Assembly (NCBI GenBank): GCA_905178155.1
Contig: CAJINV010000003.1
Coordinates: 9,059,979 to 9,123,978 of the forward strand
Length of the DNA stretch: 64,000 nt
Direction: 5' to 3'
DNA from: Amoebophrya sp. A120
Lineage: Eukaryota; Protista; Dinoflagellata
Below the pieces are notes generated by a model. The model did no database searches. It saw nothing but the letters and a program-made list of their open reading frames with translations, and was not told where the DNA came from. Numbering within the stretch: position 1 is the stretch's first letter; each line of letters opens with the position of its first letter. This document shows positions 269-64,000 of this stretch, piece after piece. A program made the translations under genes and the position numbers.

Positions 269-1748
269 CTAGTTCTTCTCTTCCCCCCCCGCCCCTGCGA
301 CCGCACTATTTTCCCTAGAGATTCCTTCCCCCGAGCTAGTATTACTAGCCTCCGGGGAACAAGGAGGCGTTCGTCCGCCCTCCTGTCCTTTTTTCACGCC
401 GGCGGCCACGACCAAGTCGTCTGACTCTGAGCGCAGCTCCTCAAGGTAATGAATGCCCGGCGCCCCCCGACTATAACGTCCGTCCTCACAAAGGAAGATC
501 CGCAGCATTCGTTCCCTAGCAGCCTCATCGGCGGGAAGAGCAACCCGCTTACCAAGAACGTCTCCAAATTCGCGGTGTAGTAGAAGATGCAGATCATTCC
601 CCAAAAACCCGCGACACCACTATGCATTGCAAACGTGTCTGGGTCTGGAAACATGTAAACTTCTGATGCGCATTTTCGACCAGACAAAAATCTGTTATGC
701 ATGGACTGCAAAAGCTGCTCACTTCTTGTCCTCACTCAGAGAGGGAACTTGCCATGCGGATTAAGCATTGCGAAACAAGCTCAAAACCTGTGATGCTAGG
801 ACTTGCATGCCAGACATTCTCCGTCACGCATAAACAGCGCCACACTCTTCCAGACCCAGACATTTTTACATTTGATAACCACGGCTGTAACGCAATCTCA
901 AAAAGAACGTGTTGATCATGATCTTCACCTTCAGCTGCGGCTTCATCCCTGCTGACGGTCTTACGGTTGATGACCTCCTGCATGATCTGATCCAAGCTGC
1001 CAGCATCAGGTGGAGGTACAACATTCTGCGGTGAACCAGCACACGCGCCCTGCTCACTTCGAGATCTTCGGGTGGAGCATGATGGCAGCTGGTGGTGCAC
1101 CATCTGCAAGGAAAGAACATTTTTGCTGGCATCTGCACGGCGCGCCCTCGAGGACCACGTTCTTTCCCATGCCCTTCCTCGGGTCGTCCACCTACCAGGT
1201 GACAGAGCTTCGTCGGCAGGGCGCTCCTTGTTCGCAGTATCAGCTGTTGCCACAGCTGCACTTGTTGAACGAGGCTGTGTCTTTGCTTTCGAGAACGCCC
1301 ATTTTTCAGCCTCATCATCATCGCCTTCGTCTCGCAATATTAAAGCGCCAGTTCTCGCGTCGATGACTATGTAACCGTGTGCCCCCGTACTAGGTGAAGA
1401 CGTCTTACGTACTCTGAACGAATCCCGGTCGAGGCCGGTTCGTGTTTCTCCCAGACGAGAAAAGCTCCCGACCTCCACGACTTGGCCGCGTTGCTTCAGA
1501 CCCCGTATCAAAACCCCATCGCGAAAATGGCCTGTATGCACTTCCAACTGCGGAAACGTTTCCTCCTTGTTGGAGTAGTCCTGCTGTGCTTGGTCAAGAT
1601 GCACCGAGACGCCCTGACCAAGAGGCCCGAAAGACTGCGAAATGAAGTCCCCGGAGTGCATGCGGTAGAGGTCAGACGAAAAAACTACATCTCGTCCGTC
1701 TTTATCCAGCGTCATTGTCACTGTTACCTGCTCGGGACTTGAGCTCAA
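269..1748 (-). CDS. Hypothetical protein, at least 2 exons, 5' end uncertain
   Basis: ORF 732..1748 joins ORF 269..604 in frame (...EIALQPW-CRGFLGNDLHLLL...) after removing element 621-877 plus one ACCAC. No recognisable domain. Confidence 0.7.
621..877. mobile_element. Introner, TIR family A
   Basis: Left TATGCATTGCAAACGTGTCTGGGTCTGGAA pairs with right TTCCAGACCCAGACATTTTTACATTTGATA; perfect flanking repeat ACCAC (616-620, 878-882); interrupts an ORF. Confidence 0.92.
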
Positions 1749-32500: not shown

Positions 32501-35500
32501 TGAATTTGTCTAGCCGAGTCCCCATCTTGACTATGGTGTGGGGACGTTTTTATTCACGATAGGACCGCACAACTCGTCATGTTCTTGTTCTAAAGCCTCC
32601 GTGGAGAAGTGTGCCTGACTTGCTTCCTCCACGTGTCGTGTGGTTCCCACGACTTGCTGGTCCTCGTCAAGAAGGTGCGGAAACGTCGCATGAAGATAGA
32701 CCTCCGCTTCTGCTCGGTTCTGAGCCTCGTCCGCGAGCCAGCTGGCAGAATCGCAGTTGGCAAATCGGGACCTGTTTGGAGGACTCACCGAAAACGGGTT
32801 TTCGCTCCACTTCGACGCGGGCGAAGAAGCCAACGAAATGGAAATCTGCGACTTGCAATTATTCCACTCGTGTAGCATATTTTTATTTTTTGAAACTGCC
32901 ATAATGTTGGCACTAGTACTCGAAATAACCTGATGTTGTACAACATCATCTGTGCGAAGCACGTTCCCGCTTCTCTTCTCTCTGGCTGCTGCTTCCTCCA
33001 GAGGGGACGAAGGACCTTGTTGCTTCTCGTTCTCCTGTAGCGCGTCTTCATGATCTTGTTCCACAACTTGTCCATCAGAATAGGTTCGCACGCGCACTTG
33101 TTCTGACGCCTCTTGACGAGCTCCAGCTCCTCCATGCCCCGCAGATCCGCTCTTCTTGGCAGCAGCTACATCACCGCCGAAAGAAGTTCTTGTAGGTAGA
33201 CGACCACAAGAACTCGCACTGCTTGTTCTACAAGTCGCCGTTGTTCTTGAAGCAGTGCTGTATTCTCGAAACAGTGTCTCCACCCCTTCCTGTATTCGCG
33301 AAACCATTGCACTTTCCTGCCGCTCCTCCGCTCCCACCACCGCCTCTCCTTCTTCCGGAACTGGAAGCAGAGGAAAACTGCACAACGGCGAACTGCTGTC
33401 GTCGACTTCATCGTCGATGTGAATGCGTGCTCCAAAAGTGCAAGAAGATCGTACCGGACGAGCATGGAGCGAGTCATCGCGATTATATCTGGTGCGCTTT
33501 TTACCACGGCACGAATCTTCCCTATCTCCGCTCGTTCTCCCAGCTCTTTTCGCTGAATCTTCTTGAGACAGGTGTGCTTCTCCTGGAGGGTGAAAAGTCG
33601 CCGGAGACGACGACGAAAAGTCGTCTTGAGACTCGTCTTCTGAAAGATCGTGGCTGCTTCGATGTGGCGTTTTTCCATTATATGTAGTAGCAGTGGTAGA
33701 GTCGGTGAAGGCGCGGCTGCTCCTGCTCCCAGATGCTTTTACAAAATCGTGGTTGTATTTGTCCGACTCTCCAATTATAGACGCTTTAGTAGAGTAGGCT
33801 CCTTTTCCTTTCCCTTTCGTATTTGTTGTACTGGTGTGCTTATTATACTCCTGACACCACCTCAGCAGCTCCTCCCGGAGTCTCGCGTTTTCACGTTCCA
33901 GTGCTGCGGTATGCACGCTGTCGCAGGTATTGGCGTCCGCATTTAGCGCAGCGGTATGCACCAGGCCGTCGCAGGTACTATTGGCTTCTCCTGCAAGACG
34001 TGGAGCGTGGTCAGCGTCACGATGCTCGTCCAGGCCATGCCTATCGCATGCGGGAGATGAACTATTGATCAAAATCGCAGCTATGCTTTCTTCAATCTCC
34101 CCTCTTCTGCCTCCGGCGACGATGCCCTCTGGGACCATTTCCTCTGTACGACGAGAGGGGTGAGAAGGATCATTGGGCCAACCAGTGTCACAGCTCGCAG
34201 CTCGACAGTGATTGTAAACAGGGTGGTCGTGGTCCCGGAAATCTTCACTGTTTTCGCTGCTTTCTGTGAAAGGCGCGGCATCAGCCTCGCACGGCGGGAT
34301 CTTTTTGCGCACGAACACTTTTTGTTCCTTTCCCGAGGAGCTCGACGCTGTAGTCGACGGCGTGGCGTCCGCGCTCTGATTGCGTTCAAGGGGGCGATCT
34401 TCTTCATCTGCATCGTCTTCAGCCCGACTTACCCGGTTTGAAGTAGAGGCACTAGCGAAATTTTTCGCAGTGGTGTCATTCTCTCCGTTCTCCACTACCT
34501 GCAGTTGGTGTTGGACATGTTGCTGCTGGTCATGCCTGCCAAATCTACTTTCGATCTCGGCAATTTGCTGCTTCAATACTTCGCGCTGCGCCTGGAGCAG
34601 CCGCATCGCCGCAGAAACTTCTTTCGCTGGGGCGGCGCCAAGCCCGTCACTACTTGCAGGAGAAAAATTACTCGTGGCAGTAACCGACGTCGCTGCAACG
34701 GAAGGCGCCGCTCCTCGGGGTGTTGCAAACAAATTTCCCTGAAAGCTCGAGGGTGAAGTCGATCCGGGAGTCGAAGCCAGCATGGTGGCAGGGGCAGGCG
34801 CAGGCTTGGAGGAACCCTTCGCAAATGAACGACCATTGTCGTCGATCCGACCCAGAAGATCGGTGATGGCACACAGACAACCCTTCCTGTCCAAGACCAG
34901 AACTCGCTTATTCTTATGATCAATAACGCGCTGCAACTCTTCGTCAGCTTCGTTCTCGACTCTGTTACTGTGCTGCAGATCATGTTCCCCGGAAACTGGG
35001 GCCTGCTCGCCCATCTTCAGGTGATCCTCAACCTCATGCCGAAGCCTCCTGTTGAAAATCAAAATATCAAGAGTCAGCAGACCAGTACAATTTCTTGTTA
35101 CAGAATCAAGCAGGTGGCGCAAGTTGATGAGAGTGGAAAGAACATACAAAGCGCAGCAAGCTTGTTGAGCGAAAAAACTTAAATTATCAGGCGAGCCAGG
35201 ATGTGCAACTGGCAACGTGCACGTGTTGTGCGCTGTCCACTAGGTTGAAAAACATAAAAGCAGCAAGGAAATTTTCTCTTTGTACAGCGTCATCAAGGTC
35301 AACCTCAACACATCGTATATGTTGCAGCTACTTTCGATAGATACTTTTGCTCTACCTTCCATCTCCTCTGCTTCTGCTGGTGCTCGCGCGTGGCCTGGAG
35401 CACTCAGCAGCTAGACTGCCGTCTTGGACGAACGTTCCCGAGGTAGCTGCACCTACCGGCGCAGTCTGAAGCTGAAGACCTTCTGCGTCCTCCGAGGGAA

Positions 35501-44400: not shown

Positions 44401-47310
44401 CATTGCGGACGGGCTGGTAAGAAGCGCTGCGTCAGATTGGTATACTGTGTGAAAACATCGTCCCGCCCACGCCCACCTTGGATTATTTCTCAAGAAGAAG
44501 CTGCCTACTTTTTTACTTTCTGTCTGAGCTTGTGCAGGTAAAATTCGTATCTGCACGCACAACGATCGTGACGTGCCTCCCCAGACAACAAAGCGTTTTT
44601 TGATGTCGCTTTGGAAACAAGTTAGCAGCTCTAGTAACCACGATTAGCAAACGGCTGTTCCAGAATATTCAAGAGGTAAAAATTACCAAGATGAGTTATT
44701 TGAATTGAATGAATAAGAAAATTTGCAAACAGAGGGCGCAGCGTGGCGCCGACAACAATGATCAGCAGATATGTTGGACGGGATCAATTCGCCGAGAAGT
44801 AGTCAGCGAGCGGACGCGTCTCCGACATACATTTGCTTGTGCGCCGGATCTCCAGCTGAGTTTTTTACTGGGCGCGAGCGCCGAGTAGGGGAGGTCGCTT
44901 CTTTCGCTTTCACACAAGAATGCGGCTCGGCGAGAAAAGCCGCAAGCCAATGGCCCAAACAGAATTAATTCGGGCCTGAATTAAATCCGCCACCACAGGC
45001 CTCACCCCGGGCCCGGGGCCCACGGGGAGGGAAAAATAAAAAAATCTCACTGGGCGGGAAAAAAATTCGTTTTTCCCGCCCGGAAAAAAACGAATTAAAC
45101 GAATTAATCGAAAAAAAACGCGCCCAAAAAATTTGACAGGGAAATCACACATGAAATCCTGACCCAGCCCGCGGGGCCGGACCCGGAAATTAATTATTTT
45201 TAATTCCCCCTCCTGGGAGATTTTTTTTTCGATTTAATTCGAATTGATTCCGCCCCTGCTGGGCCAAAATTAAATCCGACTCAAGGGCCAGGTTTGAATC
45301 AGGCCAAATTTTACTCGGTGCGTGGGGCCCTGTTTTTCCGGGGATGGTTTTCGTCTGGAGAAAACGCGAGTCTCCGTCGCGTCAGCATGCAGCTCCAGCA
45401 GCCATCACATCATCTGCGAGGGAGCTTGTGCAGGCCGGGCAAAACACCAACAGAAGCAAAGGACCACAACCCCAAACAATGATGTCAACCGCTGAGCATA
45501 TCAAGTCGCGCCTCCAGGTTCTGCAGCTGCAAAAAAAAAATAATTCATTTAAATGGATTAACTCATCTTGGTATTTGGACCACATAAGAATATCAATGCG
45601 GTTGCGGCCGTGCTTCTATACCTAATAATTACTTACTTTGTTGCGGGCCCAGGCGAATTTATATCTGTCATCCACATCCTTGTCGGGCGCACCTCTCACG
45701 AAATTTCCATTTGTTGCACAGCAGGACAAGCATCTTGAATATGGGAAAGGGACGTTTGTACAAGTGATAATTGGCGCGCTCAACGTAATAACGGCGAAAC
45801 CGTTCGGCTGCCAAAGAAAAGGTCGTGGTCCCGGGAGTTGTTTTGCTTCCCGACCTCGCAGCGGGATCAGCGCTTATCGAAATGAAAAGCGCCCCATCTC
45901 GAAAGTGAGCGTGTAAGTGGCGTAGTACAAGTAAGTTCCTGCATTCAACTAAGCCTTCTTCTAGTCTTGTAATTTATCACGTTAGCAATCACAGCACACG
46001 AAGGCGGCACCTGAGGCGCCTTCCCGTCCTCGTTTTTTCAGTGCTGAACGATTGGAATGCAACCCGGCGCTTTTGAGTTTGATGCTAAGTCTGTTGAGCG
46101 ACCAAACGGAATTTTTACCGATCTTTGTGTTCAAGCACAAAAATGCTGGTTTATTGAGTTCTTATTGGAAATCGGCGGCTATTTCCGAGATGCGGCTGCT
46201 GGGGCGGGTGCCTTGATAGCGTCCACCGCGGGTTTTTCGTCTTTTCGCGATTGGTGGATTAAGAGCTGTCCCTCGATATCTTCTGGTAGGAAAACGTCAG
46301 CCCAGAACGCAGGACTCCTCGACCAGCGCACCAGCTCGCTGATGCCCACATCGTCCCACAAAAAGTATACGATAGTGGACAACTCCCCCTGCCCCTTCGT
46401 CGAACATCAGCATAATCTGCTTATTGAAGCATAGAAAATGGAGCTTGTCGTGTGTGAGGAACTTCTCATGCCGGGACTGACACTCCATGTAAGTGGAAGT
46501 AGTACCTACTCTAACTCTTTGCGCTTTATTCGGTGCGGCCTAGGAGTACGAGTAGGAGCTGCTTGCATTTTACATCTCACAAAACTGAAAGGAAGAGGGA
46601 GCTGTCTGTCTTTCTCTTCATAGAGTATTCATACCTTTGCGAATGCGATCGAGTACCTGAAGCGGCAAGAGGCAAATCAGTGAACAACTTTGATGTATCG
46701 AGATCGACAATCAATACAGCGAGCAAAGGGGGCGTCAAAAAAAAATAGCAATAGCTCAATACTCGGAAAGGTGGTTCTTTACGCTCTTGTGGTAATCATG
46801 TAGATAGCTTGGAAGAGTCTTTTCTGGATCTGCAGTGCCAAGAAGCCCACAAAGCACACCGCGCTCGGTCGTGTGCTCCGTCGAAGTTGCCCCCCCTGCA
46901 GGCAACCGCACGTGCGAACGCCGCTCGCTTGATATTTCTTTTTCATGATGAATGGCAACGTTTGCATCTGACGATCCGGGAGTCTTTAATGAAGCCATGC
47001 GATTTCGTAGCGTTTGCATAGGCCTTTCGTGCAGAAGTCCTGGAACGTCAAAGTTTTTTCCCGGTCGGAGCAATTTGCGGCTTCCCAAGCCCTCGCTCCA
47101 GATCTGGTGCACCCGTTTCACGAATTTGCGGTCTGGAGGCGGGTCGGTGCGGATGTCGCCTTCAGCTACAGAACGAACACGGCCCATCGGTAGAAAGTCG
47201 CATCGGCTGCGACTTGTTTCCACTTTGTACTCATCGCTTGCGAAGGTGCCTGTTGCTTCGAAGGAATGCAGAAGCCCAAAGAACAGCAGAAAACTCCAAC
47301 AATGCAACAT
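41449..47310 (-). CDS. DXD-motif glycosyltransferase, GT32 / Gly_transf_sug family, multi-exon
   Basis: Signal-like N-terminus; KRVHQIW; YFLWDD; FRDLAKYLILYFYGGIFLDADI; EPRHPFW; IFFLPWHNFNP (restored by removing 43399-43568). Exon structure between 44500 and 46760 is unresolved. Confidence 0.8.
43399..43568. mobile_element. Short introner (CAT...ATA ends)
   Basis: CATTCCCGGAAAATTTACCA...CCCCAT pairs with ATGGGGTTGGTTAATTTTCAGGGAATA; flanks AATGG/AATGT; removal gives YGSDD-IFFLPWHNF. Confidence 0.85.
44960..45318. repeat. Homopolymer-rich segment with degenerate inverted ends (possible MITE)
   Basis: GAATTAATTCGGGCCTGAATTAAATC matches the reverse complement of GGTTTGAATCAGGCCAAATTTTACTC at about 17 of 26; abrupt change in composition; no target-site duplication seen. 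Confidence 0.4.
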
Positions 47311-47723
47311 GTTGCTCGTGCTTCACCAACAAGCATACGTAATCGAAATTTGTTCCGTACAAATAAACAAAGTGGAATTTAACTGCCCGACTGTAATCAC
47401 GAATATGCAGCACTAAGTAAATACTACTAGCTCATGATCTTCTTGACCGTGCAGCACCACACGCAAAACCGGTACAACTGGGGGCGTCGGAAGAAAGGAA
47501 AACGCGAACTACCGACAGGACGACTACGTACAAGCATTCTCTCTTTCAGAAACATGGCCGGTCGCGTTTGATTTTCATTTGTATTGTTTTCTTTTTCGAA
47601 TAAGGAGCGGACGCAGAAATGTCGTGGAGGACTTTGCAATTTCATTTCAATAATGGTGCGCATTGTTTGCAGTAAGGAAGAATGTCCACTACTTACAGCA
47701 GCTGGTGCAACATTTGGCTCTAC

Positions 47724-50700
47724 TTATGTATCGTGAGGCTTTTTGTTCTCTTTCCCCCCTGTGCCTGTACTCGCTGCTTCGCTACGCGGCGCACTTTTTT
47801 TCTTGGAGGCAAGAAAGTCGTCCGCGTGCAACTTGGAGGCAACGGCGACGAAGTGTTCCGCAACTGCGGGCACATGCTGCGCAGCTTGGTGCAACTGCGT
47901 TTTCCACGTTTGGTGCACACGGTTTGCGTGTCGACGGTGGTAATCTACCTCCTTTTCGTAGTTACGTAGAACCTGGTCCTTGTGTGACTCCTGTAACTCG
48001 AACACCTGTTCGGCTCGTTGATGAGCTTCGCGAAGCTCCTCCCGCAGCGACTTAATTTTTGTCCGAAGGTCTTCGTGGTCTTCGCTAGTCTTGTCTTGGA
48101 GGTCTTCCCCCTCGTCGACTCCTCCTTTAAGGTTTTTCTTCAGAGCGCCGGCTTGTGGTTCTTGCGATACCTGTGAACTGCATGCCTTTATTGCCTCCTT
48201 CTGCATCTCTTCCTCACACGCGCCTGGCACAACAACCGCAGAGGACGTCTTGATGATTTTCCCGTCGCTATCATTCGGGTCGGCGGTCGAGCTTTGTGAG
48301 GCCTGCGTCTCGCGGTGCAGCCATCGGGTGATTGCAGAAAGTCGCCCGGTGGATGTAGGGTCGCTCGTGTCGACTTTTTGCACCAGAGGCGTAAGCAGAG
48401 GCTGCAGCCGCTGTACGAGTTCAATTGTACCGTTCGCATTTTTCGAGGAGCTGGCGGCAGCTGTCATGTGCTTCTGCAGCCGTGGCACCACAGGATGCTT
48501 TGTCTGCGACTGGGTCTTCCTCGTCTTGATGAGCATCGTGTTCTGATTTTTGGCACGGTCGTTCACATAGTCGTCCTTGCGATGTCCATCAAACGCATCT
48601 TGCCGTCCTCCACCTGTCGTGCTCATTCGGCGCATGAGAGGCCCGCGGCTGGGTTTGTGCGGGCTCGGTTCTCCACGACCGGGCGTGAGAGTGGTCCCCA
48701 ATTGTGCCTTCGTGCCTCCATCTTCTCGTCCCCGACCAGAGACGGCGAAGCTCGCTGACGAGTTGTAGGAATCATTCAAATTACTCATGTAATCTGTGAC
48801 GTGATCCAATACATGGCGCATGTCTGCAACGGCTTCCACAACAGCGTCCTCACCCGCCGTTTCAGGAACGCGCAGAAGTGTCGCCAAATCTGTAGGTATG
48901 CGTGACGACGATGAACTGCAACTCCCGCGAGCCCCAGCTAAGGTAGCCTCGGTTGACGGTGATCGCCCGCTGGAGGCACTCCCCGACGTTTTCATTTCAC
49001 CAGGCACTATAATAGAAGGAGGAATTTCCAACGTCGCAGTCGGCGTTTGCGACACAAGGCGGCCTCTAGACTGAAAGCTGTTGCTTGTAGTGATCCTGCC
49101 TCGTCCAGCGGGGTCCCCCGTTTGCAAACTCGTTGTATTTGACCCGAATTTTCTCAACTGCACTTCCAGCTGAGCTTTCTCGCGCTCCAGCCGAACCAGA
49201 GCAGCCGATCTGTGTGCTCCGCTCACTGCGGAGTGGTCCGTGAGAGCAGCCTCGATGTCGTCGGCACTAGAGTTCGAAACGGCACCTGCTGCCGCGTCTC
49301 CTGCCCATAAAACGCCGGACAGAGGCTCGTCCGTTTCGCGCTGGTCAGGGTGAGGATCGCCCCGCACCAGCAAACCGGACGAGCTGCTCGCCGAAGAGGA
49401 CATTAGCCGTTCTCTCTGGTGTGCCGCCTCTGCATTTTTTGGTTCCGGAAGCGCAGTCGGCGATGTCCTGGTGGTGTTCTTTTCCACTACATCCTCATGA
49501 TCCATTACGACTGAGGTAGAAGACGAGGACTCAGGGTCTAAAACTCGTGCTTGCTCGAGGACATGATCTGGTAGCAACGGTCGACGTGTGCTGCCCATTT
49601 GTTCTTGGAAACGACCGCTGGCGCTTGCAAATGTCGTGTTGCGACTGCTCGTGCCACGACCTTGTCGGTTGCTCGTCCGACGTCTCTCGTGCTGCTGCCG
49701 CAAAAGGTGCCGCTGTTGCTCCTCGATCATATGCCGTTGTTCTTCCAAAGCATAGCGCAGATCCTCGCGGTGTTTTGCTTCGACTTCCCGCAGTGCCGTC
49801 TCCATCTCGTAGCGCGTGCGTGTTATCTCCGACTCTAGCTGGTGCCTTAACAGGTCGCTGTCTTGTTGTCTCGATCTGGTCGTGCTCTCCAAGTTGCGGA
49901 GCTGTTCTTGTTCCGAGCGATTCTGTTCTTCATTTCGGTGGTACTCGCGTCCGGTCTGCTCCAATTGCGAAACAGCAGCTTCGGATCGCTCTAGTAGCCA
50001 GCTTCGTTTCTCTTCTTCATGCTTGCGGTTCGACTCTTCGATCTGTTTAAGTATTTTCTTCATTTCTACATTGAAACAAATTGCAACAGTGGTAGAAAAT
50101 GCAACATGAGCTGTCGGCTGCGCTGCTGGCATCTTGCAGGTGCAGGGGCGTTCGAGTAACAATAAACTGTCTCTGTCTAAATACATGTGCTGCTAATGAG
50201 TGGAGCCTTGGAATCGGCCCTCTACTTCTGCAAAGCGTAAGCGCCGCTCCTACGCAAACGAAAGTCCGACGCCCGTGGTTATCGCCATAACGATATCAAA
50301 AAAGTAGGAATAGTAGGACGACTGAGCTTATCGTAATACGGACTAGGAAAACTTTAATTATGCCAGCATGAGACCGTAACGGAAACGCAAAAAGAATGAA
50401 GCCCAAAACTTTACGAACATTATATATAATTTCATCAGACCTCCTTCTTCCAGCGCGCCTCCGTCTCCGCGTGCAAGCTAGCATGCACCCGTGCCTGTTT
50501 CTCCAGGTCCTCGGAATGTGTTTTTTGCTGCTCTTTCTGTTGGGCTTGCACTTCTTGAATGGCGTTTTTAAGCTGGGCTATCTCTTGGTCGCGCTCGCGG
50601 TCGTCCGTAACTGACCCCCCTCCCCCGTCGCTGCCGGTTACGAAAGGAGCTTTCGGTGCTGGTGCGCGCAAAACACCCGCGCTTCGTATGCCCTCGCGCA

Positions 50701-52249
50701 GCGCCACATGGTTACTCTGGCGCCAGAGTCCGTGAAGCAACTTTGGGTCCATGGCCGCCTTCGCAAGGCACTGATTCGTTTTTTTCATTTGTTCCAGCTC
50801 CTCCAGCAGGTGACGTTCTCGTACCCCGTAGTGCGACTTTTGTTCCTGGAGCTCCTCTTGAAACAGGTACGCCCGCTCCGCCATCTGTTCACGCAGACGC
50901 CAACTGCGCTCTTCGTTGCGTGTCGGAACAGCCGAAGGCGCGCTACGGTCACGGACCCGTGGTCTTGCCCTTCCGTGGCTGCTCTCGTCGAACCCGGAGA
51001 ACTCTGTCAGGTGCCGGCGATTTTCTGCTATCAAACGCGCACAGTCACGCTCAAACCTCTCGCGCTTTTCACGCACCCGCGAGAGTCGCTCCCCCACCAG
51101 GTCCTTGCGTGTGCGCAAAAGCGGCGACGACACAGACTCAAAACTTCGTGCGGGCATATTCGGCAGCGACCCTGCGCCCCCTGATGGCGGTCCATCCTCA
51201 ACATGCCGACGCACTGCAGAACTATCCGACATTCTTGTGGGCGAAACAAAGGCCGGGCCAGCCGAATTCGACCGTAGAAACTTTCGCGTTCGCGAATGAA
51301 TGCGGCTGCCAGAGGCGCCCAGCATAGGAGATGAAGACCAACTACGAGCCGGCGATCGCGGCTGGTGGAAACTCGAGTTTGGGGAGGGCGATCGATACCG
51401 CTTCGAAAACGGAGATTGCGATGGGCTCGGCCTGCGGTTTGTCCTCTGGGACGGTGGATGATCTTCCAATACTCGACTTCGGCTCCGAGACAAGGCTCCC
51501 GTGGGAGATGCCGGCGAAGTCATCTGCACCCGACCGCCGGCGGGTGACCACGGCTTGGGATGCTGGGGACGGGAGTACTGCGAGGTAGCGTTCTTCGCAA
51601 CTGTAACGTCTTCGACCTTGTTTGCCTCAATGGAACGATTGTGCAGTCGCTCACTCAAAGTCAACTTTCCCGCTCGGCCTGACCGGGAGGCCGCTTGTCC
51701 ACTTTCATGCCCCTGTTGAGCTGGGCCCAGACCCACCTGTGAATCCCTGTAGCTGATGGGGATCTCGGAGAGTTGGCTCGCAGACGCGTCGGTTACGTGC
51801 AGCCTCGCAGACACACTATTTTCAACGGAGCTGCGCGGCTCATAAGCATCGCGCTCTTGTGGATGCTCCTGATTGCCAAAATTAGGACTATTTTTACTCT
51901 CTCCCCGAGCAGCCTGAAGCAGGCTCTGATAATGCTCCTCGCTATCATTCAACATTCGGACGCTTGCTGAAATTGCGTTTGCCCTTGATGTTGCATCCCA
52001 AGCAGTGGTAGAAGTAGACCCTGATGCACTACCAACTTCTCGCTGTACCGCCTTGTGCGACGCAGTACTATGAGTTCCCGCGTTCCCTGGTTGTGGAGAA
52101 GTAGCTGCGGCAGGGTCAAATGGGTTTGCCGTGCTCCCGACTTCACTGAAGAACCGTTGTTTCGCCCGTAAAATCTCCTCAGACTTTTGCCGAGCCAAAA
52201 TCTTAAGCTCCTCGATTTCATGCTCAAGTTGTCGTGGCGCCGGCTCCAT
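47724..52249 (-). CDS. Large coiled-coil hypothetical protein, 2 exons
   Basis: ORFs 50435..52366 and 47724..50186 join via a candidate GT-AG intron at 50043-50440 (ARWKKE-IEESNRK); several E/Q/R/K-rich heptad segments. Confidence 0.75.
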
Positions 52250-53681
52250 TTTTTCATTTAGATATCGGGGTCGAATTGGATATAGAGACAAAACCCAAAA
52301 CGCATTTCTATCTTTGTACTTTGGTTTATTAATTATCGGTACGCCCCATATAAGGGAAAGTCGCACGTCGATATTTTGAAGCTAAACCTAAAGGTGAAAA
52401 ATATTTTTAAATCATGCATCTCACCTCGGCCTGATGAGTAGATTTTTTGATTTGGCCAAGCCCTCTATTTGCATGTACTGTTTGGTTTGGGCGCATGGGC
52501 TTGGCATTCCACAGCCTTTTGTATCCAAGTGCTCGGCCGTATTTTTCTACTTGAGCTAAAAAAACATACATAGATGTGAAAAGAAAAGGATCCCGCCATT
52601 CACAGTGAGTGGCGGAACGACCTGCGCCATTTTTTCATGGACGACCACGACTGTAGAAATTCACTCGCTGTCATCTATCGACACACGCACATCAACTACC
52701 ACCGAGCGAAAACAACCGAGCGGTCGCTCCTGCCACGACGAATAAACTTTGGCAAAGCAAGTTAAATTCACTTCCGAGGCTGCACAATGAAGATCAACGC
52801 ACGAGAGTTCTCGAAACACGATCACACAATTGATCTTACCTAGCGAAAAAGAGATTGAAAACACGAACGTTGCTGTTCCCAATGAAAAAGATGAAGCGCT
52901 GACTGCACTTCTTCATCACTGCCAACGGCTAGACAAGGGGATCGGGCCAGCATTGTGTGGAAATAGAATTAGAATTAGAATTAGAAGCGCCTGACGAGCT
53001 GTCCAGGAGTAGTGGTAAGTCCCCAAAAAGCTCCAAATTCCACCCCGCTTTCTCGAAAACCAAAATCGTCGGGAGACGAAGAAGTACGTCTGACCCAAGC
53101 CTACGCCTAGCAGCACTGACGACGTTGTATTGTATGTAAAAAAGACAAGTGAGAAAAAAAGGAGAGATGAAAAAAGAAACACGATAAGCAAATCCTCTCC
53201 CTTCGCTTTTTCAGCAGTTGCACTTTGATTTCGCCTTTCATGACTTGCTACATCTGGACGTGCGCTTTCTATACTATGCTGGTATGCTGGAGATTTATCA
53301 CAAAAGACGCGAGGCCTAGGAGGGCGTCCTGTCGTTTCCCCGTCGTGTCTCGCCCAGCAATAGATCATGTTGCTAGTTTCGCTATGTATAGATACTACTG
53401 TCTTACTCGGATGCGGTCTTGGTCTTCACTCTTCACCACATTTTTATGAATGTATTAAATTATGACTAGAAACTCAGTTACTCGTACGTGCTTACTACAG
53501 TCAGCGTGCCTTAGGAGCTGCGTTGATGCGTTGTGGTAGTGATCAACATCATCGAATAAAACCGGCACGTCCCGGTCCCGGAGGGAGCAAATGTAATAAA
53601 AGCAAGCCCTGATCGGTTAGTTTTCAATACTACACTACGACTACTGATTAATCATTCTGTGAACTCAAAATGCTTACTAAA

Positions 53682-56600
53682 CTATCGGAGAGCATTTTCT
53701 AGCACCACACGCACGCCCCAGGCCTTCTTTGTAACATCTCGTGCAAAGGCTACAACCTTTGACGACAAGTCGAGTGCCGTTAATGCACTTTTCGTTGTGG
53801 AATGGTCGCCGAACGCCCTTGCGTGAACCTCCATGAGCATGCGCAACTGCAAAGAACCCTCCCCCGGTCTGGCGGGAAAAGCTAAGCTATTCTTTTCCGA
53901 CCACTCCTGGAAGGAACAGAAAAGTGGGTCTCTTCTGTTATGCGAAAAATCATTCTGCTGCCCTGGCTGGATACTGCGTCCTGCAGACGTTGCATTGTTG
54001 AGAAGTGACCCTTTCAAAAAGGTTGGCGCTTGTTGACTTAACACCTCCATCTCTTTGTCCGGCAAAGCCCAGCTCGTCCAATCGTCGTACCTACCGCATC
54101 CGCTCTCATCCGTCCGTACAAACACCTGAACGGTGTCTCGCAGCGCTTTGCGCCAGCATTCCGTCACGACAGGCGTGGTATCATTCTTCAAGTAGCTGTG
54201 GTCAGCATCAGGTGCATGAACAAGAACATCAGCAGCAGGTGCACAACCCCGTGTCGACGGCGAGCTAGTCTCGGTTGGCAGGGTACCATCCGCTGGCCGG
54301 TGAGGAGCCGTCTGGAAAGGTTCCGCGGAACCAGGACGCTCGTCTTGGTCAACCAACAGAAGCGCCATAAAAGTGGAGAGATCCACTAAGGCAAGGGTAG
54401 CGTATCGATCCGCTTCCACGCGGCTCGTTGGCACTCCACCCCAAATCGCGTCCTGTGCGTCGAGGTGCAGTACGTTGGGCAGCCGCATCAGAGTCGTATG
54501 GAAGCGTCAGGTTTGAAATCGTCAAAGTTGAAATAATTTGTAATGCATAAAATGCATGCCCCGAGGTGCGTGCGTTGCAGAGCAGGCAAGTGAGGCCGAT
54601 TGTAAGCCTGTTTGGGGTTACAGCTCGAGCTGCTAAAGTAGCATGAGAAAATCACTCTTCTTTGCCTAGACAGCACGACAAACTGGATTTAGGGACCGCC
54701 GAAATTTGTCATGCGCCACTTGGAAAATGGGTTCCAACTGGCATCCATTTTATGCATGACAAATTATTTCAACTTTGTCGATTTCAACTCTGACACATCC
54801 ATAAGTCGGATTCGACACGTGTTCTTGCCAGCGCAGGTTATTGATCGTATTACAATGAAAAATGCCCCCACCCCCGAACTTGAAAGCATTTGTATTGCAA
54901 ACCTTTCCAAATGAAAAATTCGCCCTCTTGCATGTATCAGCATCACAGATTTCCGATCGCGAATAGCAAAAATTTGTATTGCAAAAGATCCCAGCAAGAG
55001 CGGTGCTTGTCATGAAAGCGATGCGAAACACGACTAGAATCTGCATCAGAAAGATTCATACTCCTTTCATGCATGACAAAAAGTTTTCATTTGGAAACTT
55101 CGCATCACAAATTTTTGCAACTTTGGGGTGGAAAGCACTTTTCACTGTAATAGATCGCGGGATAGATTTCTCTGCAGCAGTGGTGAACATCCACCTCCAC
55201 TTCAGCACCGCCACTGCACATGCCCATATGGTCCTTTTCCGGGCGAAAAAAAACGAAGAAACTTCGCAAACTGTAGCCTTCGTTGTCCTGTGCGCACTCC
55301 CAAATTTCCCGTCCAAGCTCTTCTTTGAACGCCAGGGAGGCAAACAGAACCTGCTTTGCACCCTCAACAATGCTGCTTGCATCACACAGATTCAGGTAAC
55401 ACAACAACGGCGCCGATGATGCTTCGTCTGCTCTCGTTGTTTTTGCTAACGAGAGCTCTCGTCGTCCCAGGAGAGGTCTACTAGTACTTCTCTCGAAAAG
55501 TGAAAGGGGAGACCACCTAGTTCCAACACGAAGAAGATCTTGTCCTTCCAGACCAGGAACAGTGTCGTCCATGTCGTCCCTCTTGGGAACATGTGTTGTT
55601 CGCGCTGGTACCGCGAGCGACCGTGACGATCCCACAAGGCGGGTCCGCACTTCCTCACGAATATATCAAGTGTAAAAATGTCTGGGTCTGGAAGAATGCA
55701 ACTTGTCATGCTGATTTTGGATTATAAAAAAATCTGTTAATTGCATGAGCAGCAAAGAGAGTCCAAGTTTTGCTACACGCAAAGAGCATTTGTCATGCGG
55801 TATAGGCATCAGGAAGCCCTCACAAAATCTGTGATGCTAGGGCATGCATCACAGACATCAGGAGTCATGCAAAATGTGCATGACAAACCTGGCAATCTTC
55901 CAGACCCAGACATTTTTACATTTGATAGAATAACGGCAGGATCGACGTCCACGTCCGCGCGAGTGCAGAATATCAAATGCAAAAATGTCTGGGTCTGGAA
56001 GATTCTGAGATTTGTCCTGCATGTTTTACATGACCCAGGATGTCTGTAATGCACGGCCGCGCGTCACAGATTTTGAGAGGGCTTCCTGATGCCTACTCCG
56101 CATGACAAACGCCCTCCCCGCGTAGCACAAACTAGACTCCTCTTGCTGGTCATGCAATACAGATTTTTCTAGAGTTCAAAGTTAGCGTCACAAGTTCCAA
56201 TCTTCAAGACCCAGACATTTTTACATTTGATACAGAAGGCAAAGAAACGAAACAGGGCAGCAAGGAACCCCGTGTCCGGGAGGAACCGGTCGGCTGCGCG
56301 ACGCCAAAATTCCCCCGTCACAGGAATTGCAAAGTTTATCCCGACCGTGTTATACCACCACGACATCGCCAGACCCGGGTCCGGTCGCTTCACTCGACTC
56401 GGAGAGACGAGCATCTCTACTTCGCTTCTTGAAGTAGCCTCCGCTGCGACATCTTGTTCACTCTCGACGTCGACGTCAAAAGGGCTGCCAGAAGGCGGCC
56501 GACTCGTTGTGGACGTTGTCGTAGAAGCGGAAACAGTGCCGCGCCGCCCCCAGTGCCTTGAAGTGCGCGCGTTCTGTATTTCCCAGTACACCATCCAGGT

Positions 56601-59234
56601 ATGGTAGGGCGTGACGGCTTTCGCAGTCCCTAGAGGTGCGTCTGGATCAGAACAGTGACTTGCTGGGCGGCACTGGAAATAGCGTTTGTTCCCATAAGGG
56701 GCTAACACCGTAGTAGTGGTTGTGCTGTTGTCTATTGTGTCGCTCACGTTCGTCTTTTTGTTCACCGACTGCATCATTTTTCGCCGCCATTCCGCCGACT
56801 TCACCTTGCGCATGTGCATGCGGTACACCAATAATCCCATCGAAGCCAACCGCGCCGGAAAGTACCGCTCCGGCTCCCGTACGGCCAGTGTGGGAAAGAA
56901 AAGCGACGCTCCCACGTAGTTGCAGGCTCCGCCAACAGCGTATTGCACCCAGGCAGAGTAGAAGCTGTTGAACTCCGGGGACGCGCGCACTCGCCAGAAG
57001 CAGTCCGGCTCGTCAACGCGGCAGTTATACATGTCGAACGGATCGGTAGTAGCGAGGCGCTTCATCACCATCTCGCCCGCGAATGCGTTCCGCCTGCAGG
57101 AACGGAAACGGTCCGCGAAAACCATTTCGGCCACGTTGACCATCATCATCAAAGGCGCGGCGCGAAGTTTACGTTCCCAGTGTTGTGACAGCTTTACGCC
57201 TGCTGACACATCATCTGTAGCACTCGAGGGATTCATGATTGAAAAAAATTGCTCAGCGTCTGCGCAGGAACTGCTTTTGACACTACCTGAAACGAGAGCT
57301 CCACAGTCCGTCGTGTCGTCTAGTTCTGCTAGCTCGTGTTTTGTTGCATGTCGTGTCCACAAATCAGCGTCCACAGGTAAATGATCTGCGAGGGAGGCAA
57401 TTCCTGGCGTCGCAGTCGAACTCAGACCAGAGTATTTTTTGCCTAACGCAGGGGCGGGGACAGGCCCTCGTACAACCGCCACGAGGCGATCAGCCGAGGA
57501 GGAGACAAGGCCCCAAAACGCCTCACGGAGATTCGTCGTGAAGCTTGTTGTGTCTTCACCCGGTTCATGAGATGCTGTTGCTGATGCACGGTAATTATGT
57601 CGCTCCGTGTTCTTCGTCGTGGTGTTACCAGGAGACAGTGCGGAAACAGCTGCGATCGTTGGATCACTAGGCGTACTAGAGCCACTACTTCTGTCAAGAA
57701 CTACATCAGCTGACATCCCGTTGCCAGGGCGCTTCTCGGGAGATGTTGACGAGGACACTTCTGCGTTGATTTCTGGTGCCGCAGGAGCGGCAGAATACAC
57801 CGCAGTAGAGTTCTTGGCCTGCCGCTGCTTTATCCAGGCTTTCCGTAGGTGCGAGAAGCCGTCCATCGCAGAAGGCACGGTCATCCACTTCAAGACCATG
57901 ACTACAAAAGTCAGCGAGTTCACCACCGCGTTCTTCTCAAGCATGTTCCAGGAGAACAAAGGCGGCACCTGAAAGCCAGCCATTGTCTCTTCTAGTACAG
58001 GCAGAAAGCAGCCAGAAAACCAGTCCCAGTCAGAGTCGAGTGAAGCGACCAACTTCTCATGCAAATGCGACTCCAGCAGAAACCGCAGCCCAAATTCCTG
58101 AACACTCGTCTGCTGCGGAAAAAGGTCCGCCTCGTCATTCTGCATCGCGACGAAAGATTCCGCCAGGGAGGTGGAGGATGAAGATCCGTCTCCTTTCGCT
58201 GCACGGTTGCGGTGTTTTGATGTTGGAAACCGCAAAATTGGTGCGATCCAGGGCTGCGCGGTAGCAAGTCTCGGGATCATCTCTTCCACAAGATCTAGCA
58301 GCTCCTCCTTCAAACTGTCTTCAGAACCTGATTCATCGTCCGCCTGGGGCGTTGCTCTCCCTCCGACCCTTGCTTTTTCTTCTTGCCCTATCTGCTCCAG
58401 GAGCGTCGTGCACTCCCGCTTCCTAAATTCGTTTTCCAAGAGAGGGTCATCAAGGTGCGTGTCGGAAAAACTGTGTCGTTGCACACCACGCAATGTGCCA
58501 TAGTCCGTACGGTTCGCGACCGATAACAGTGCGTTCCCGAGGGTGATGCGCCACGCAGCGCTTCGGGGCACGGCGGCCTCGCTTTCGCTATAGATCAGCG
58601 GCCTCGTAGTGCCGAAAACTTGAGCCAAGAAGTCCAGCGCAACCTGAGCATCCGACCTCGCATCGATTCCGCTCATCGTCCACAAGTCTGTGAGCATGAG
58701 ACCCGCATACCGCTTTGCCTGCAATTTCGTCTTGATCACTGTCCCCCAAATTTCGTCGTTTTCAAGGTAAACCTGATTTGGAACCTGCCGAATCAAAGTC
58801 GGCTTCGACACGAAGTCTACCCAAAGCTCAGGTCTAAAACTATCTGGGAAAAAACTTGCAGCGCAGGCTTCCCGCACCGGGATCCGGAAGAAGACGAAAA
58901 AGGACCGCAAAGACCTGTGGCCGTCGTGCTCTGGGTTGTTCCTCTTTACCCGGGCGCATTGCCAAATGACCTCGCTCAGTGCGGTCTCGAAAGAGGAAGA
59001 GTACTCGAGTGGTCTTGCGCCCTGCTTCAATTCTTTGACAAGACAAACATTCACGTAACAGAGCTGCTCTGGTTCCTTTGCTTCTTCTCGCCGTCGCCAC
59101 ATTTGGCCGGTCTTGTAAAAGCGTGTCGCGCGAACCTCGAAGGTTATCAACCTATCGTACCCGAGGTGGACCACCCAACGCAATAGGACACCGTAGAAGT
59201 GGAACAACCGCGGCGACGGGCCAAAACGCGACAT
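53682..59234 (-). CDS. Large hypothetical protein with a twice-repeated uncharacterised domain; 5 exons, 4 introners
   Basis: Continuous frame after removing 55971-56232, 55664-55927, 54848-55152 and 54497-54803. The motif LCYxNxC..IWxCA..SLRSFFVFFR..VSxPTLxR.PN..IWG occurs near both ends. Start codon uncertain. Confidence 0.85.
54497..54803. mobile_element. Introner, family C (long TIR of about 64 bp)
   Basis: TATGGAAGCGTCAGGTTTGAAATCGTCAAAGTTGAAATAATTTGTAATGCATAAAATGCATGCC has an inverted copy ending at 54803; perfect repeat AGTCG; removal gives HVSNPT-LMRLPN. Confidence 0.95.
54848..55152. mobile_element. Introner, family B-like
   Basis: TATTACAATGAAAAATGCCCCCACCCC ... GGGGTGGAAAGCACTTTTCACTGTAATA; perfect repeat GATCG; removal gives IYPAI-NNLRW. 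Confidence 0.93.
55664..55927. mobile_element. Introner, TIR family A
   Basis: TATCAAGTGTAAAAATGTCTGGGTCTGGAAGA ... TCTTCCAGACCCAGACATTTTTACATTTGATA; perfect repeat GAATA; removal gives DPAVI-REEVRTRL. Confidence 0.96.
55971..56232. mobile_element. Introner, TIR family A, inverted relative to 55664-55927
   Basis: TATCAAATGCAAAAATGTCTGGGTCTGGAAGA ... TCTTCAAGACCCAGACATTTTTACATTTGATA; perfect repeat CAGAA; removal gives FFAFC-TRADVDV. Confidence 0.96.
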
Positions 59235-60005
59235 CTTGTTCAGAGAGGCAACGTGTCGGAGCGAATGTGTACTTGCACCACCTCCGAGGTTCTCCTTTTC
59301 TCGACAAGCCACCTACGACGCCTGACGAAGAGTCCTCCAGAGCCGATTATTTCTTACTGGTGTAGGTACGAGTTGTATCTCTCTATCTTTTCTGCGAGCG
59401 CTCAAAAAAAAAACCGAGGCAGGCACACTCGGAGACCCAAAGCGCAAAAAACGGCAAGAGTGTGGCGCGTAACCAGGCTCTTCTTGGTTTCGCTTTTGCT
59501 TTTGGTCAACACCAACAGAAAATTTTGCATGACAACGAGCGACACGACCTAGTACAAGGAGATCGGATGATGTAACAAATATCTTGTACTTGAGTTGGCG
59601 CAGCTCCGTCTCGCTCTCGCAGCCGTCACGGGAACAAAAGAATTGCAGCCTACAAGGAGTTGAACTTGAACATCCAATGAACCACCAAGAGGTAGACGCA
59701 GACCTGCGACTGTGAAAGCAAAAACAAATAAACATCGACTCGCGTCGCTCTCTCCGACCGGAACGGCAAGATTCCCATCTTTCTAGATGATAAAGAAGAA
59801 TGAATGCTTTAAATTTGAAGAGCTTCATACATGTCATCGAACCTGTGAAATCGAACAGAAATCGTACAGAAGTGTCAACAACGTCCGTGAACGGATCCGT
59901 CCGCCAGGGCCCATCGGAATATCGAGTTGTGGTGCCGCTGTCTTTCCTCGGCGTTCAGGTTCAGCTGGGGAATAAATGCTTTTACAACAAGCAACAAGTC
60001 AGTGT

Positions 60006-63000
60006 TCAGCTGGGGAAATACTCGACGTGGTCGAACTTATCGCTGCCGACACGCATCCACCACACGTAATCACTGTCAACGTAGATGGTAGAATTAGCGT
60101 ACCGATGGCCAAACGCGTTATAGGGTGGGGTTCCGGGTGTGCGGCTGTGTAACAGGGAGAGCCCGATTCCCGGAAAATTTGCCAAATTGAAGTCGTGCCC
60201 CGAGGCGTAGTATTGGGTTTTCGCGGCGTATGCGTACATATCCTGCAGGAAGCCCTGCAAGGAATGATCTCCGTCGAGAAACACCACATCTAGGTCTTCC
60301 AAGTTGTGGGTGGCTCTCATGCTATTGCGGCGATGAACGAATAGCCCTACGCTGTCACGGCCGACGCGCTGGTTCTCCTCGACGATGAAAGGCCCCGGGA
60401 TCTGTGTCCGGTACCGTTGGCGGGCACGCCTCAGCAGAATTTGCGGAGTGACTACCGGTTCCGCTGGCTTGACCACTTCTGATGGCGCGGCTTCTCGGCT
60501 CGCGATGCTGCTTGTCGATGCTGTTCTTGCAGTGCTCGTAGATGAGATTGCAGATGTAGATGAAGTGCTAGTGCTTCTGCTGTCTTCAAGTAGAACATCA
60601 TCCTCTACAACGTGCTCTTGTTCTTGCTTGTGATTTTCACGTTGAGCAGCGGCTACGAGTTCTTTTTCAGGATGATCTCCTCGCGATCGTTCATCTTCAG
60701 GATGATCCTCGGCTTCAGGGTCGTTGGTCATGGTGGCGAAGTGCGTGAGATTCCTTATCACCGATTCGTAGACCGTGTCGGCCGATTCGGAAACGTCCGT
60801 CACTTCGGCCATCAGTCGAAACTCGTCCATTTCCTGCAGCCAGGGGTCCACCAGATGGTACTGAATCAGGATCCAGCCCGGTAGTTGGCATCGCGCGAGA
60901 ACGTCCATTGTCGTTTTCCCTTGGAAGATGCCGATCTCCGCGACGCGCAGCAAGTACGCATCTTGCATCAGCTTCTTGCGCAGAAACAAAAAGACCTCCT
61001 GTCGCAGTTTCTCCATCAGTGCGAAATTCACAGACTCGGCAAGATGTATCGCGACCGGCGTAATCTCGTCCTCTACTCTACTCCGCTCGTCAATGCTGCT
61101 CTGCTCCGCCTTGGAAGGAGGTAGAGAATCACCAACATCTTCGTCTTCGTTAGTACCGCCTCTTCCTGTTCGACTGCGTGCGTCCGGATCATTTTTTCCG
61201 TCGTCGTCGTCGTCCGGTTCACGTGCGGCGCCCTTGTTCTCTTGTTTAGACAAGAAGGTTTGCAACTGGTTGAGGCGGTGCGCCACGTTGCGCGCTTCCT
61301 GGCCAAATTGCTCGAGAATTGGCCTCGCCGAGTACCAGTGCTCAATCGGAACATACTCCAGCGGGGCCCCGCCTTGCTGGTTCTCCCGCCCCTGGTCCTG
61401 CTGCTTCGCAAAAAACCGGAGTCCAGCTAACACGGCGTCCATCGCGGTGTCTAGGCTGAATTCTCCATCTTCGTTTGTACTGATCTGAAAATCTCCCTCG
61501 AAGATGCCACCTTGGTCGGCGGAGCGCGTGCGCTCACTCAGCAATGTGAAGTCTTTCGGTGTGGGGTACAAAATCCACTGTCGGGTCTTCTCGAGGAGAC
61601 GACCGAACAGGATCCGCTTTTCTGTGACCGCCTTCTGGAGCAGGGTGCAAAGGACCTCAGAGGCCTTTGTTACGCGTCGGTCCGCCGCGCCCCGTGTGCG
61701 CTCGCGCGGAAGATCAAACATGTTGAAGCCGGACCGCAGGTTTTTGCCGGTCGGCAGTAGAAGATCATGCCCCGATCTTCTCGCATGATCCGGCGGCTGC
61801 GCAAAACGAACGCTGCCGTAAGCCGCCAAATCAGTTTTAATTACGGACACAGCTGGCGGTGCCGCTGCACTTGTTTTATCCGCTTCGGCTTCGCTTGCTG
61901 CCGATGCCGCGGGCGACAGGTAACCGAACGTTTCCTCTGCGTAGTGTCGTAATTCCAGAGTTTCAATCAGCGTGTCCCAGTGCGAAAGGAAGTTGGCCGT
62001 CCATGCATGCCACACGTCGGCGACTGTGTAGATTCCGGTGCGGGGGAATCCCGACATTTCCACCAGTAATCGGTCTTCCCCACTGGCCTCCAGAGCGGCT
62101 AGCGTTTGCACACGGCTCCCAATCACGCTGCCACGAACAGCCTCCTCCTCGTCCCGTCGCAGGTCCATCAGAACGTGCCGAACCTCTTGAAACGTCTCGC
62201 CGCCCGCAAGCACCTCGCGATAATCGGCGGCTAGGGGAGCTGAGTGGTGCTGTTGTAATTTCAATTCTACGTCGCTTTTTAGCCTGGACGTGACATCAGA
62301 AACGAACGCTCCTGTGGCCTCCCCGTTGCGCCGAGCTTCCTCGCTAGTAACTGTGCGATCTCGGACCGGATTCGTACCAGCTCCAGCGCCGCCCGCGGCT
62401 ATACTTCTCGTCCTCGAGAATGCAGAGCGCGGCCACCGTTCGCGAGGCAGCAAACTCAAAGAGGGCGGAGGGCGCCTGCCTTGTGGAGATTTTCTAGTGC
62501 CCGTACGTTGTACATTATCATTTCCAAAGTTACTGCGTTCCGCATCTTCGCTCAGGTCCTCTGAGGACGGCGAAGCAAATTCGGAGTCTGCTTCGTCGTC
62601 GTGCCCTAAAAGCTTTTTCCTAAAGCCCGGTCCGTTGCGGTCGTCGCTGTGTTCCTCCGCATACCCGAAATTATGCACCACTTCGCGAACAACGTCATTC
62701 TCTTCGTCAACCAGAAGCGTGCCTGTCCCCCCGTAGACGGCGTCACGTGGTGCTATGGAGCTCTCAACAAGCGTTACATTGATCCCTGTTGCATGCCTTG
62801 TGTATGTGCAAGAATACTAGCAAAACTGCAAGGGAAAGCTTGCCGCGGGTCTTGCATTTAAGTATTTACAGATTATTTGACATTGGCAAAAATTTCGGTG
62901 CTATGTGGTGCGTGGAGAACAAACTTGTCGTGCGAAGTAGCTTGATCGACGTGTCGTGAAGGGTTAACGTCAGTGAAGACTCTGACTCTGCACGACATCA

Positions 63001-64000
63001 AATCATGTAACAGCGATCGATGTCGCGTTTGAGAGTTCCATAGGTGCCGACACTTCGCCTCGGGCTTCCTCCAACTGCTTCTCGATGTCGCGGTCTTCGC
63101 GCCACTCCTCCCACGCTTTCAAGTGCTCACTCACCCAGAACAGTGGCGCCTGGCGCTCGATTGACTCGTGCATCGCGTAGGTGCAATTTCTTGGCAGAAA
63201 AACCGGCTGCGGCAGCACGTGGGTGATGTTCTGCGTAGACGACAAAATTCGGTGCTCCCACAGATAATGCCAGGGATCCCGCTGCAGAATGTCGCGCATG
63301 CTCCCTTCAAAGCTCTCCTCTTCCTCTTTCTCCTCGTTGTTGCTTTGTTCCACCCCGTTGTGGTCCCCTCCACCTCCTTGGTTGCTTTCTGAACTTGCCT
63401 GTTGCGCAGGCTCCACTTCAGCATCTCTTGCTGCTCTACTAAAACTGGGTCCACCGTCTTCCCGCAGGTGGTGTTCGTCTGGACTTGTCATTTGCGTGGA
63501 AGAACTGGAGGTGGCTCCAGCGTCTGCAGCGGCTCTTTCTGGTGCAACTTCTACCTGCGCCACTCGAAGTACGGAAGCTGGCTTCATCCACCCTTTGGGT
63601 TCGAGGAGCACTCCCATGTTTCCCAGAAACGTGTCGTCCCCACGAGATTCCGTCCATAGGCGCGTCCAGAGCTGCTCGGCACTGCACCGACTTCGCCCAG
63701 CACCGAAGGCTGGGTGGAACTTCGGCTCGCAACGGTCGTGCAGTGCCTGAAGATCCGTAAAAATGATACGATGCATGCGCTCGCAAAGGCTTTTCAACGC
63801 CAGGGCTTCCTGCATAACGCAATGCGGAAAACTTCTGCCATCCCGAACCCACTTCGGAGATAGCTCCAGGTCTGCGCTCCAAAACTTTTGGTGCGTGCGT
63901 AACCAGAAACGATAAGACGAAAGCACTTCCTCACACTGTGGGATTACGAAGTCGTAATCATGGTTCCTCGGCTTTCCACCGCCCTGCTTAGCGGAATTTC
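60006..64000 (-). CDS. Protein with a C-terminal class I SAM-dependent methyltransferase (Methyltransf_24-like) domain; 5' end outside window
   Basis: VAEIGIFQGKT, LVDPW, DVVFLDGDHS..G...D, GHDF. The upstream exon is open to base 64000 and joins in frame across 62754-63042. Confidence 0.85.
62754..63042. mobile_element. Introner, family D
   Basis: TATGGAGCTCTCAA...ACATTGATC pairs with GATCGATGT...TTGAGAGTTCCATA; perfect repeat GGTGC; removal gives EVSAP-RDAVYGG. Confidence 0.92.

Follow-up and report, generated by a model that had tools for sequence, protein, structure and literature searches.

The window, a 64,000-nucleotide (nt) stretch of Amoebophrya sp. A120 DNA, contains a minus-strand gene that is interrupted by four short elements, here designated E1 to E4. 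Each element has terminal inverted repeats (TIRs) and is flanked by a direct repeat (DR), and the numbers of nucleotides skipped are those of the contig joints described below. The features are as follows.

53682 to 59312, minus strand: host reading frame, stop-free from 59312 to 53685 (1490 codons) with all four elements removed; product function unassigned.
54497 to 54803, no strand assigned: E1, 307 bp; 64-bp TIR (89%); DR AGTCG at 54492 to 54496 and 54804 to 54808; 312 nt skipped.
54804 to 54847, minus strand: micro-exon 1, a 44-bp spacer that contributes 39 nt when joined.
54848 to 55152, no strand assigned: E2, 305 bp; TIR of ~73 bp (75%); DR GATCG at 54843 to 54847 and 55153 to 55157; 310 nt skipped.
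55153 to 55663, minus strand: ordinary exon between both pairs of elements.
55664 to 55927, no strand assigned: E3, family A, 264 bp; 36-bp TIR (94%); DR GAATA at 55659 to 55663 and 55928 to 55932; 269 nt skipped.
55928 to 55970, minus strand: micro-exon 2, a 43-bp spacer that contributes 38 nt when joined and falls within the loop predicted for the E3:E4 hairpin.
55971 to 56232, no strand assigned: E4, family A, inverted relative to E3 and transcribed first, 262 bp; 34-bp TIR (94%); DR CAGAA at 55966 to 55970 and 56233 to 56237; 267 nt skipped.

All four elements start with TAT and end with ATA, have sizes of 262 to 307 bp, and are bounded by exact 5-bp DRs, a single one of which has a probability of about 1 in 1000 of matching at five of five positions by chance. 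E3 and E4 are mutually inverted and identical at 215 of 264 aligned columns (81%); E1 shows no relationship to E2. The TIRs, the exact DRs, and this alignment bear out a sequence-only reading of the region with respect to the element coordinates, the inversion of the family A pair, and the identification of the elements as introners. Measured spacers of 44 and 43 bp likewise agree with that reading, which had predicted micro-exons of about 38 to 39 nt; since one DR copy goes with each element, the spacers yield exons of 39 and 38 nt in the joined frame. None of the 24 equivalent cut registers of E1 to E4 provides GT-AG, GC-AG, or AT-AC ends. The inverted repeat begins with TAT, 7 nt, and at least three A residues in E2, E3, and E4 but not in E1. 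As in MITEs, the elements are short, with TIRs, target site duplications of constant length, and many copies, an exact 5-bp DR being present in 224 of 276 elements found at 140 loci of another assembly.

These properties correspond to those of the introner elements of Amoebophrya sp. A120 in the available text of Farhat et al. 2021 (PMC7789003), which have the same non-canonical ends, TIRs, hairpin, and repeated families, as well as 3- to 5-nt boundary DRs and a TAT + 7 nt + A-run start, the latter matched by E2 to E4. The TIRs given there are 8 to 20 nt in length, whereas those of E1 to E4 are longer (34 to 73 bp), and E1 lacks the A run, but neither is a difference in kind. E1 to E4 are Amoebophrya introner elements, a further case of a known kind within a gene that was already annotated. 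The same text reports no cognate autonomous transposase in A120 and leaves open how Amoebophrya splices out its tens of thousands of introns, which lack GT-AG sites, with U1 apparently missing as well. Spliceosomal TIR introners of Aureococcus, Micromonas, Symbiodinium, and Polarella, as described in the available parts of PMC9860276 and 10.1101/2020.10.14.339549, are also MITE-like, with TIRs and a target duplication of which one copy is lost on splicing, and some classes occur in both orientations. They recruit GT, GC, or GA and AG from the duplication or the element end, whereas the registers of E1 to E4 are non-canonical and the base composition of the DR is unconstrained among 102 oriented elements. 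Euglenid nonconventional introns, according to the accessible portion of PMC12501133, are also non-GT-AG, with ends joined by base pairing and cut by spacing from a motif, but they have a CAG/CTG-type signature and short pairing, belong to a different lineage, and are not presented in that portion as elements with TIRs and 5-bp duplications.

Five further TAT...ATA elements with exact 5-bp DRs were present in the window (621 to 877, 17077 to 17341, 18398 to 18676, 32282 to 32561, and 62754 to 63042), the first two being family A copies. On the minus strand, one register of 32282 to 32561 reads GT..AG and one of 17077 to 17341 reads GC..AG, and some introners can therefore pass as canonical introns.

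Of the 16 subsets in which E1 to E4 can be removed, only the complete set, taken out with one DR copy per element, opens the 1490-codon frame; the unspliced host frame meets a stop at codon 1048. The sole match of a protein search was a public protein, P0001, with the source label “unnamed protein product [Amoebophrya sp. A120].” Codons 693 to 1490 of the joined frame are identical to it (798/798), with both micro-exons inside. The host gene model with both micro-exons is thus already public, as are the elements as a kind. P0001 was probably built from similar RNA data and lends no independent support. Its gene model begins at 57236 and may lack ~666 upstream codons; the frame from 59234 to 53685 resembles a complete member of the family, with domains A-B-C in the arrangement of P0002, and then another copy of domain A. 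A Pfam search with three exon pieces gave nothing at the curated cutoff and only a subthreshold match. The conserved downstream domain of the host gene remains in frame over E2 and E1. A W-x-x-x-V-x-x-P-T-L motif is partly encoded by micro-exon 1, and since this motif is kept in the outside homologues P0002 and P0003 and recurs in a duplicate domain that is free of elements and lies upstream in the host frame, micro-exon 1 is ancestral coding sequence. Micro-exon 2 encodes part of an unaligned linker. As the sequence-only reading expected, skipping of the 38-nt exon shifts the frame (stop at codon 1028); skipping of the 39-nt exon would stay in frame.

Eleven sequencing runs were listed, none recorded as RNA; X1 to X4, which have one common sample code, were guessed to be RNA. 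Seven of the runs (X1 to X5, X9, and X10) were compared with the window. In X1, contig joints skip 312, 310, 269, and 267 letters, and 39 and 38 letters separate neighboring joints, so that both micro-exons are kept. Each joint has 5 ambiguous letters, and the position of the cut inside the DR cannot be read from the contigs. The joints come from one contig apiece at depths of 8.2 (E1/E2) and 4.7 (E3/E4), values that cannot rank parts of the gene. Inclusion of the 39 letters was repeated in X3, while the paired 38-nt junctions were listed in X1 only; an X4 contig continues for 53 letters past 55658, which is consistent with micro-exon 2, the identity of these letters being unproven. Both micro-exons are therefore present in probable-RNA contigs, which speaks against their absence from mature mRNA, the refuting outcome that the sequence-only reading had considered. 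No joint that skips a micro-exon was found among the X1 joints listed; contigs drop rare variants, so rare skipping may occur. X2 had none of the four joints, and its exon contigs end near the elements. An X2 “opposite strands” joint at 55786/56122 was considered as a fold-back and rejected; at a depth of 43.7, tenfold that of the gene, it was read as another family copy. Two raw RNA runs, X9 and X10, were uninformative: no more than 10 and 3 of their partial reads, respectively, fell inside E3/E4, and the gene was uncovered.

X5 was DNA-like, with a depth of 43 to 55 in all bins without E1 to E4. Its contigs (46001 to 54520, 55102 to 55690, and 56210 to 64000) span all four outer element boundaries unbroken and also run through the element at 62754 to 63042. 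In contrast, coverage by X1, X3, and X4 was patchy, with empty bins. The contig joints described for X5, X1, X3, and X4 are among those listed, 89 further rows being unlisted. An X4 contig ends at 62748, immediately outside the left DR of the 62754-to-63042 element, and continues for 81 letters, as fits a spliced element. Two single-copy X5 DNA contigs, at 54785/55663 and 55913/55664, derive from other loci and apparently contain an element end, only ~5 further bases, and then the start of another element, possibly reflecting reinsertion at the same target or nesting.

The sequence-only reading had proposed that the family A pair could form a single large competing hairpin. The computed fold of the sense strand from 55650 to 56250 was indeed one E3:E4 hairpin (−368.5 kcal/mol; z of −30 versus 20 shuffles), with 230 cross pairs, zero own-stem pairs, and micro-exon 2 in the loop; at 81% identity, the two copies pair well and are not too diverged to do so, a concern in that reading. 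In this equilibrium prediction, the cross hairpin beats two separate stems by about 130 kcal/mol. E1/E2, in comparison, was predicted to fold into two separate stems, with a cross/own gain of 1 to 3 kcal/mol. Because the cross hairpin of E3 and E4 is favored so strongly, the correct product cannot arise from the equilibrium structure of naked RNA. On a growing transcript, the own stem of E4 was predicted to be the best fold until ~37 nt of E3 had been made, which is ~80 nt after completion of E4. Cross-folding on at least one strand was predicted for 12 of 71 pairs within 130 bp, E3/E4 being the most extreme and locus L072 the next. The L072 pair (1447 to 1944), a second inverted same-family pair whose members are 62 bp apart, favors the cross hairpin by 102 to 119 kcal/mol and offers a replicate locus.

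We hypothesize, with slightly better than even confidence, that each element is recognized and committed on its own terminal stem during transcription, before the more stable E3:E4 hairpin forms. An unknown machinery would read the emerging own stem together with symmetric subterminal motifs and would cut at a fixed offset from the base of the TIR stem, with a net loss of 5 flanking bases. In the nonconventional introns of Euglena, the cut is placed at a constant distance from a paired motif (PMC12501133, accessible portion), although this is an analogy only. The DR would then be a target duplication that gives a seamless join rather than a password that is read, and E4, complete ~80 nt before its competitor becomes favorable, would have a head start. 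Besides the limits of the contig evidence, two findings count against commitment on the own stem. The inner E3:E4 cross duplex (−55.6) is more stable than the own terminal stem of E4 (−49.0), so stem invasion would be downhill, and the perfect DRs of 224/276 elements also fit DR matching.

Alternatively, ends could be paired by identity of the DR, and the cross-paired GAATA and CAGAA ends would be rejected even if the large hairpin forms. Such matching would account for a correct product despite a bias of 130 kcal/mol and for perfect DRs in elements whose family copies are only ~77% alike. Direct repeats cannot pair with each other, though, and the element presumably provides no guide to an arbitrary 5-mer; nor does the full cross hairpin bring the correct ends together. 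Moreover, 34 of 276 elements have DRs that match at four of five positions, including 13 oriented elements in open frames of at least 120 codons, and the positions of the mismatches (6, 3, 2, 2, and 4) show no clear pattern. (An apparent 5′ skew of these mismatches vanished with locus-level orientation.) Inclusion of the micro-exons cannot be credited to DR matching specifically: folding order during transcription, or decay of frameshifted skip products, would lead to the same contigs. We consider it unlikely that DR identity selects the ends.

Decay of frameshifted products would imply that the cross hairpin often forms, that skipped or circular products are made, and that the correct form alone is assembled once frameshifted RNA has been degraded. 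The equilibrium fold and the stop at codon 1028 after a 38-nt skip are in keeping with this scenario, as is the lower depth of the E3/E4 joint (4.7 versus 8.2 for E1/E2), although contig depth cannot rank gene parts. Against it, the X1 joints listed include no skip joint, and inverted same-family neighbors are not depleted in the 140 loci (9 direct versus 9 inverted, a small sample). On balance, this scenario appears quite improbable.

Template switching by reverse transcriptase is a known source of false introns (PMC4176328, in the part available), and a hairpin flanked by direct repeats is its classic signature. That the four junctions are artifacts of this type is nonetheless very unlikely: the unspliced frame stops at codon 1048, the conserved downstream domain is in frame across E2 and E1, all four junctions are present as the assembled form, and E3 and E4 are skipped separately even though refolded unspliced RNA lacks the own stems of both. 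It is still less probable that the elements are removed from DNA, in the manner of ciliate IESs or as empty alleles, and that X1, X3, and X4 are DNA; the kind of X1 to X4 was guessed and the contig joints are only those listed, but no break occurs in the X5 contigs at the boundaries or within 62754 to 63042, whereas coverage by X1, X3, and X4 is patchy and leaves bins empty. Finally, the composite transposon of the sequence-only reading, in which the outer TIRs of a pair would carry host exon sequence, appears the least probable of these alternatives, as the outer TIRs of E3/E4 can pair (−44.7) but the outer flanks differ within each pair (GAATA/CAGAA and AGTCG/GATCG) and thus provide no common target duplication, a five-of-five outer match occurs in 0 of 161 adjacent pairs at the 140 loci, the three longer-range matches, no more than chance predicts, have elements with DRs of their own inside them, and the micro-exons were not found elsewhere in the window or in these loci.

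The 140 loci (L001 to L140) were found by a scan for the family A TIR motif; all are from one other assembly, 80 have 2-kb flanks, and they are part of ~410 stretches estimated in the collection. They contain 276 distinct candidate elements, with a DR matching at five of five positions in 224 and at four of five in 34. Over at least 200 nt, 103 elements align to E3, 11 to E1, and 2 to E2. Family A has no preferred orientation to the gene (21:20, with an orientation assigned for 41 of 103 copies). At L016, the element finder also caught a tandem array of palindromic repeats of ~17 bp each (2745 to 2985). A 10-bp subterminal motif is present in 264 of the 276 elements, several times per element, in both arms and across families, at a density of 9.4 per kb in elements versus 1.3 per kb outside them. 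This motif is a candidate binding site of a mobilizing or splicing protein.

Exons this short are very frequent between the introners of these loci, and the arrangement of E1 to E4 is not special in this respect. When distances were measured from a fixed anchor element, 29 of 74 neighbors lay 34 to 101 bp away, compared to 7.3 ± 2.5 expected (53 loci; 0 of 5000 shuffles), a fourfold enrichment over the shuffled null. Five loci that overlapped, and any with fewer than two elements, were excluded from this analysis, the null was uniform per locus, and the assembly breaks at repeats. In an end-to-start scan that included the window, 127 of 259 gaps were 34 to 101 bp, 6 were 33 bp or less, and 29 were 102 to 200 bp. 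A hard floor of 34 bp was rejected on account of gaps of 17, 25, 27, 28, and 29 bp and a doubtful gap of 6 bp; under the anchored null, neither the lack of gaps below 34 bp (P = 0.10 to 0.36) nor the dip at 102 to 200 bp (P = 0.14) was significant. Clustering was independent of family, and we saw no sign of same-family local hopping in these loci (TIR type common to 10/66 close versus 13/84 distant pairs; P = 1.0). Nucleosome-type periodicity (43 gaps; P = 0.4 to 0.5) and 10-bp periodicity (P = 0.14) of the gaps were insignificant, and micro-exon length modulo 3 (62/41/48) showed no clear bias.

Micro-exons such as those described here would be ancestral coding sequence isolated by two independent insertions, and they would be common if new elements tend to land 35 to 100 bp from an existing one. 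We put forward, tentatively and with less than even confidence, a broader proposal: introners are targeted to sites ~35 to 100 bp away from an introner already in place, whatever its family, and thereby mass-produce micro-exons, all introners have a 10-bp subterminal motif that one protein could bind, and a non-canonical splicing machinery captures each own stem during transcription although the wrong hairpin is favored by 130 kcal/mol. Earlier work by Huff in 2016 is reported to have covered spliceosomal TIR introners and insertion biased toward linkers. Insertion with a linker bias has been described for other introners (PMC9860276, available parts), so a spacing bias would have a precedent. 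The available main text of PMC7789003 does not treat neighboring elements, cross-pairing, or spacing and lacks the terms “nucleosome” and “exon skipping,” and “exon length,” “distance between,” and “micro-exon” are absent from its supplementary text as available. A literature search on introner spacing or micro-exons in Amoebophrya, which covered few subscription papers, found nothing relevant.

The E3/E4 locus shows that an equilibrium hairpin cannot alone define intron ends, and the separate skipping of E3 and E4 argues against a template-switch artifact. Together, E3/E4 and E1/E2 form a built-in natural test pair for the choice of partner ends. The spacing bias between neighbors, which was not found in the literature searched, is the most novel lead here, and its shape hinges on a genome-wide check. 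If confirmed genome-wide, it would reveal the target choice of the mobilizing enzyme and why genes fragment into tiny exons.
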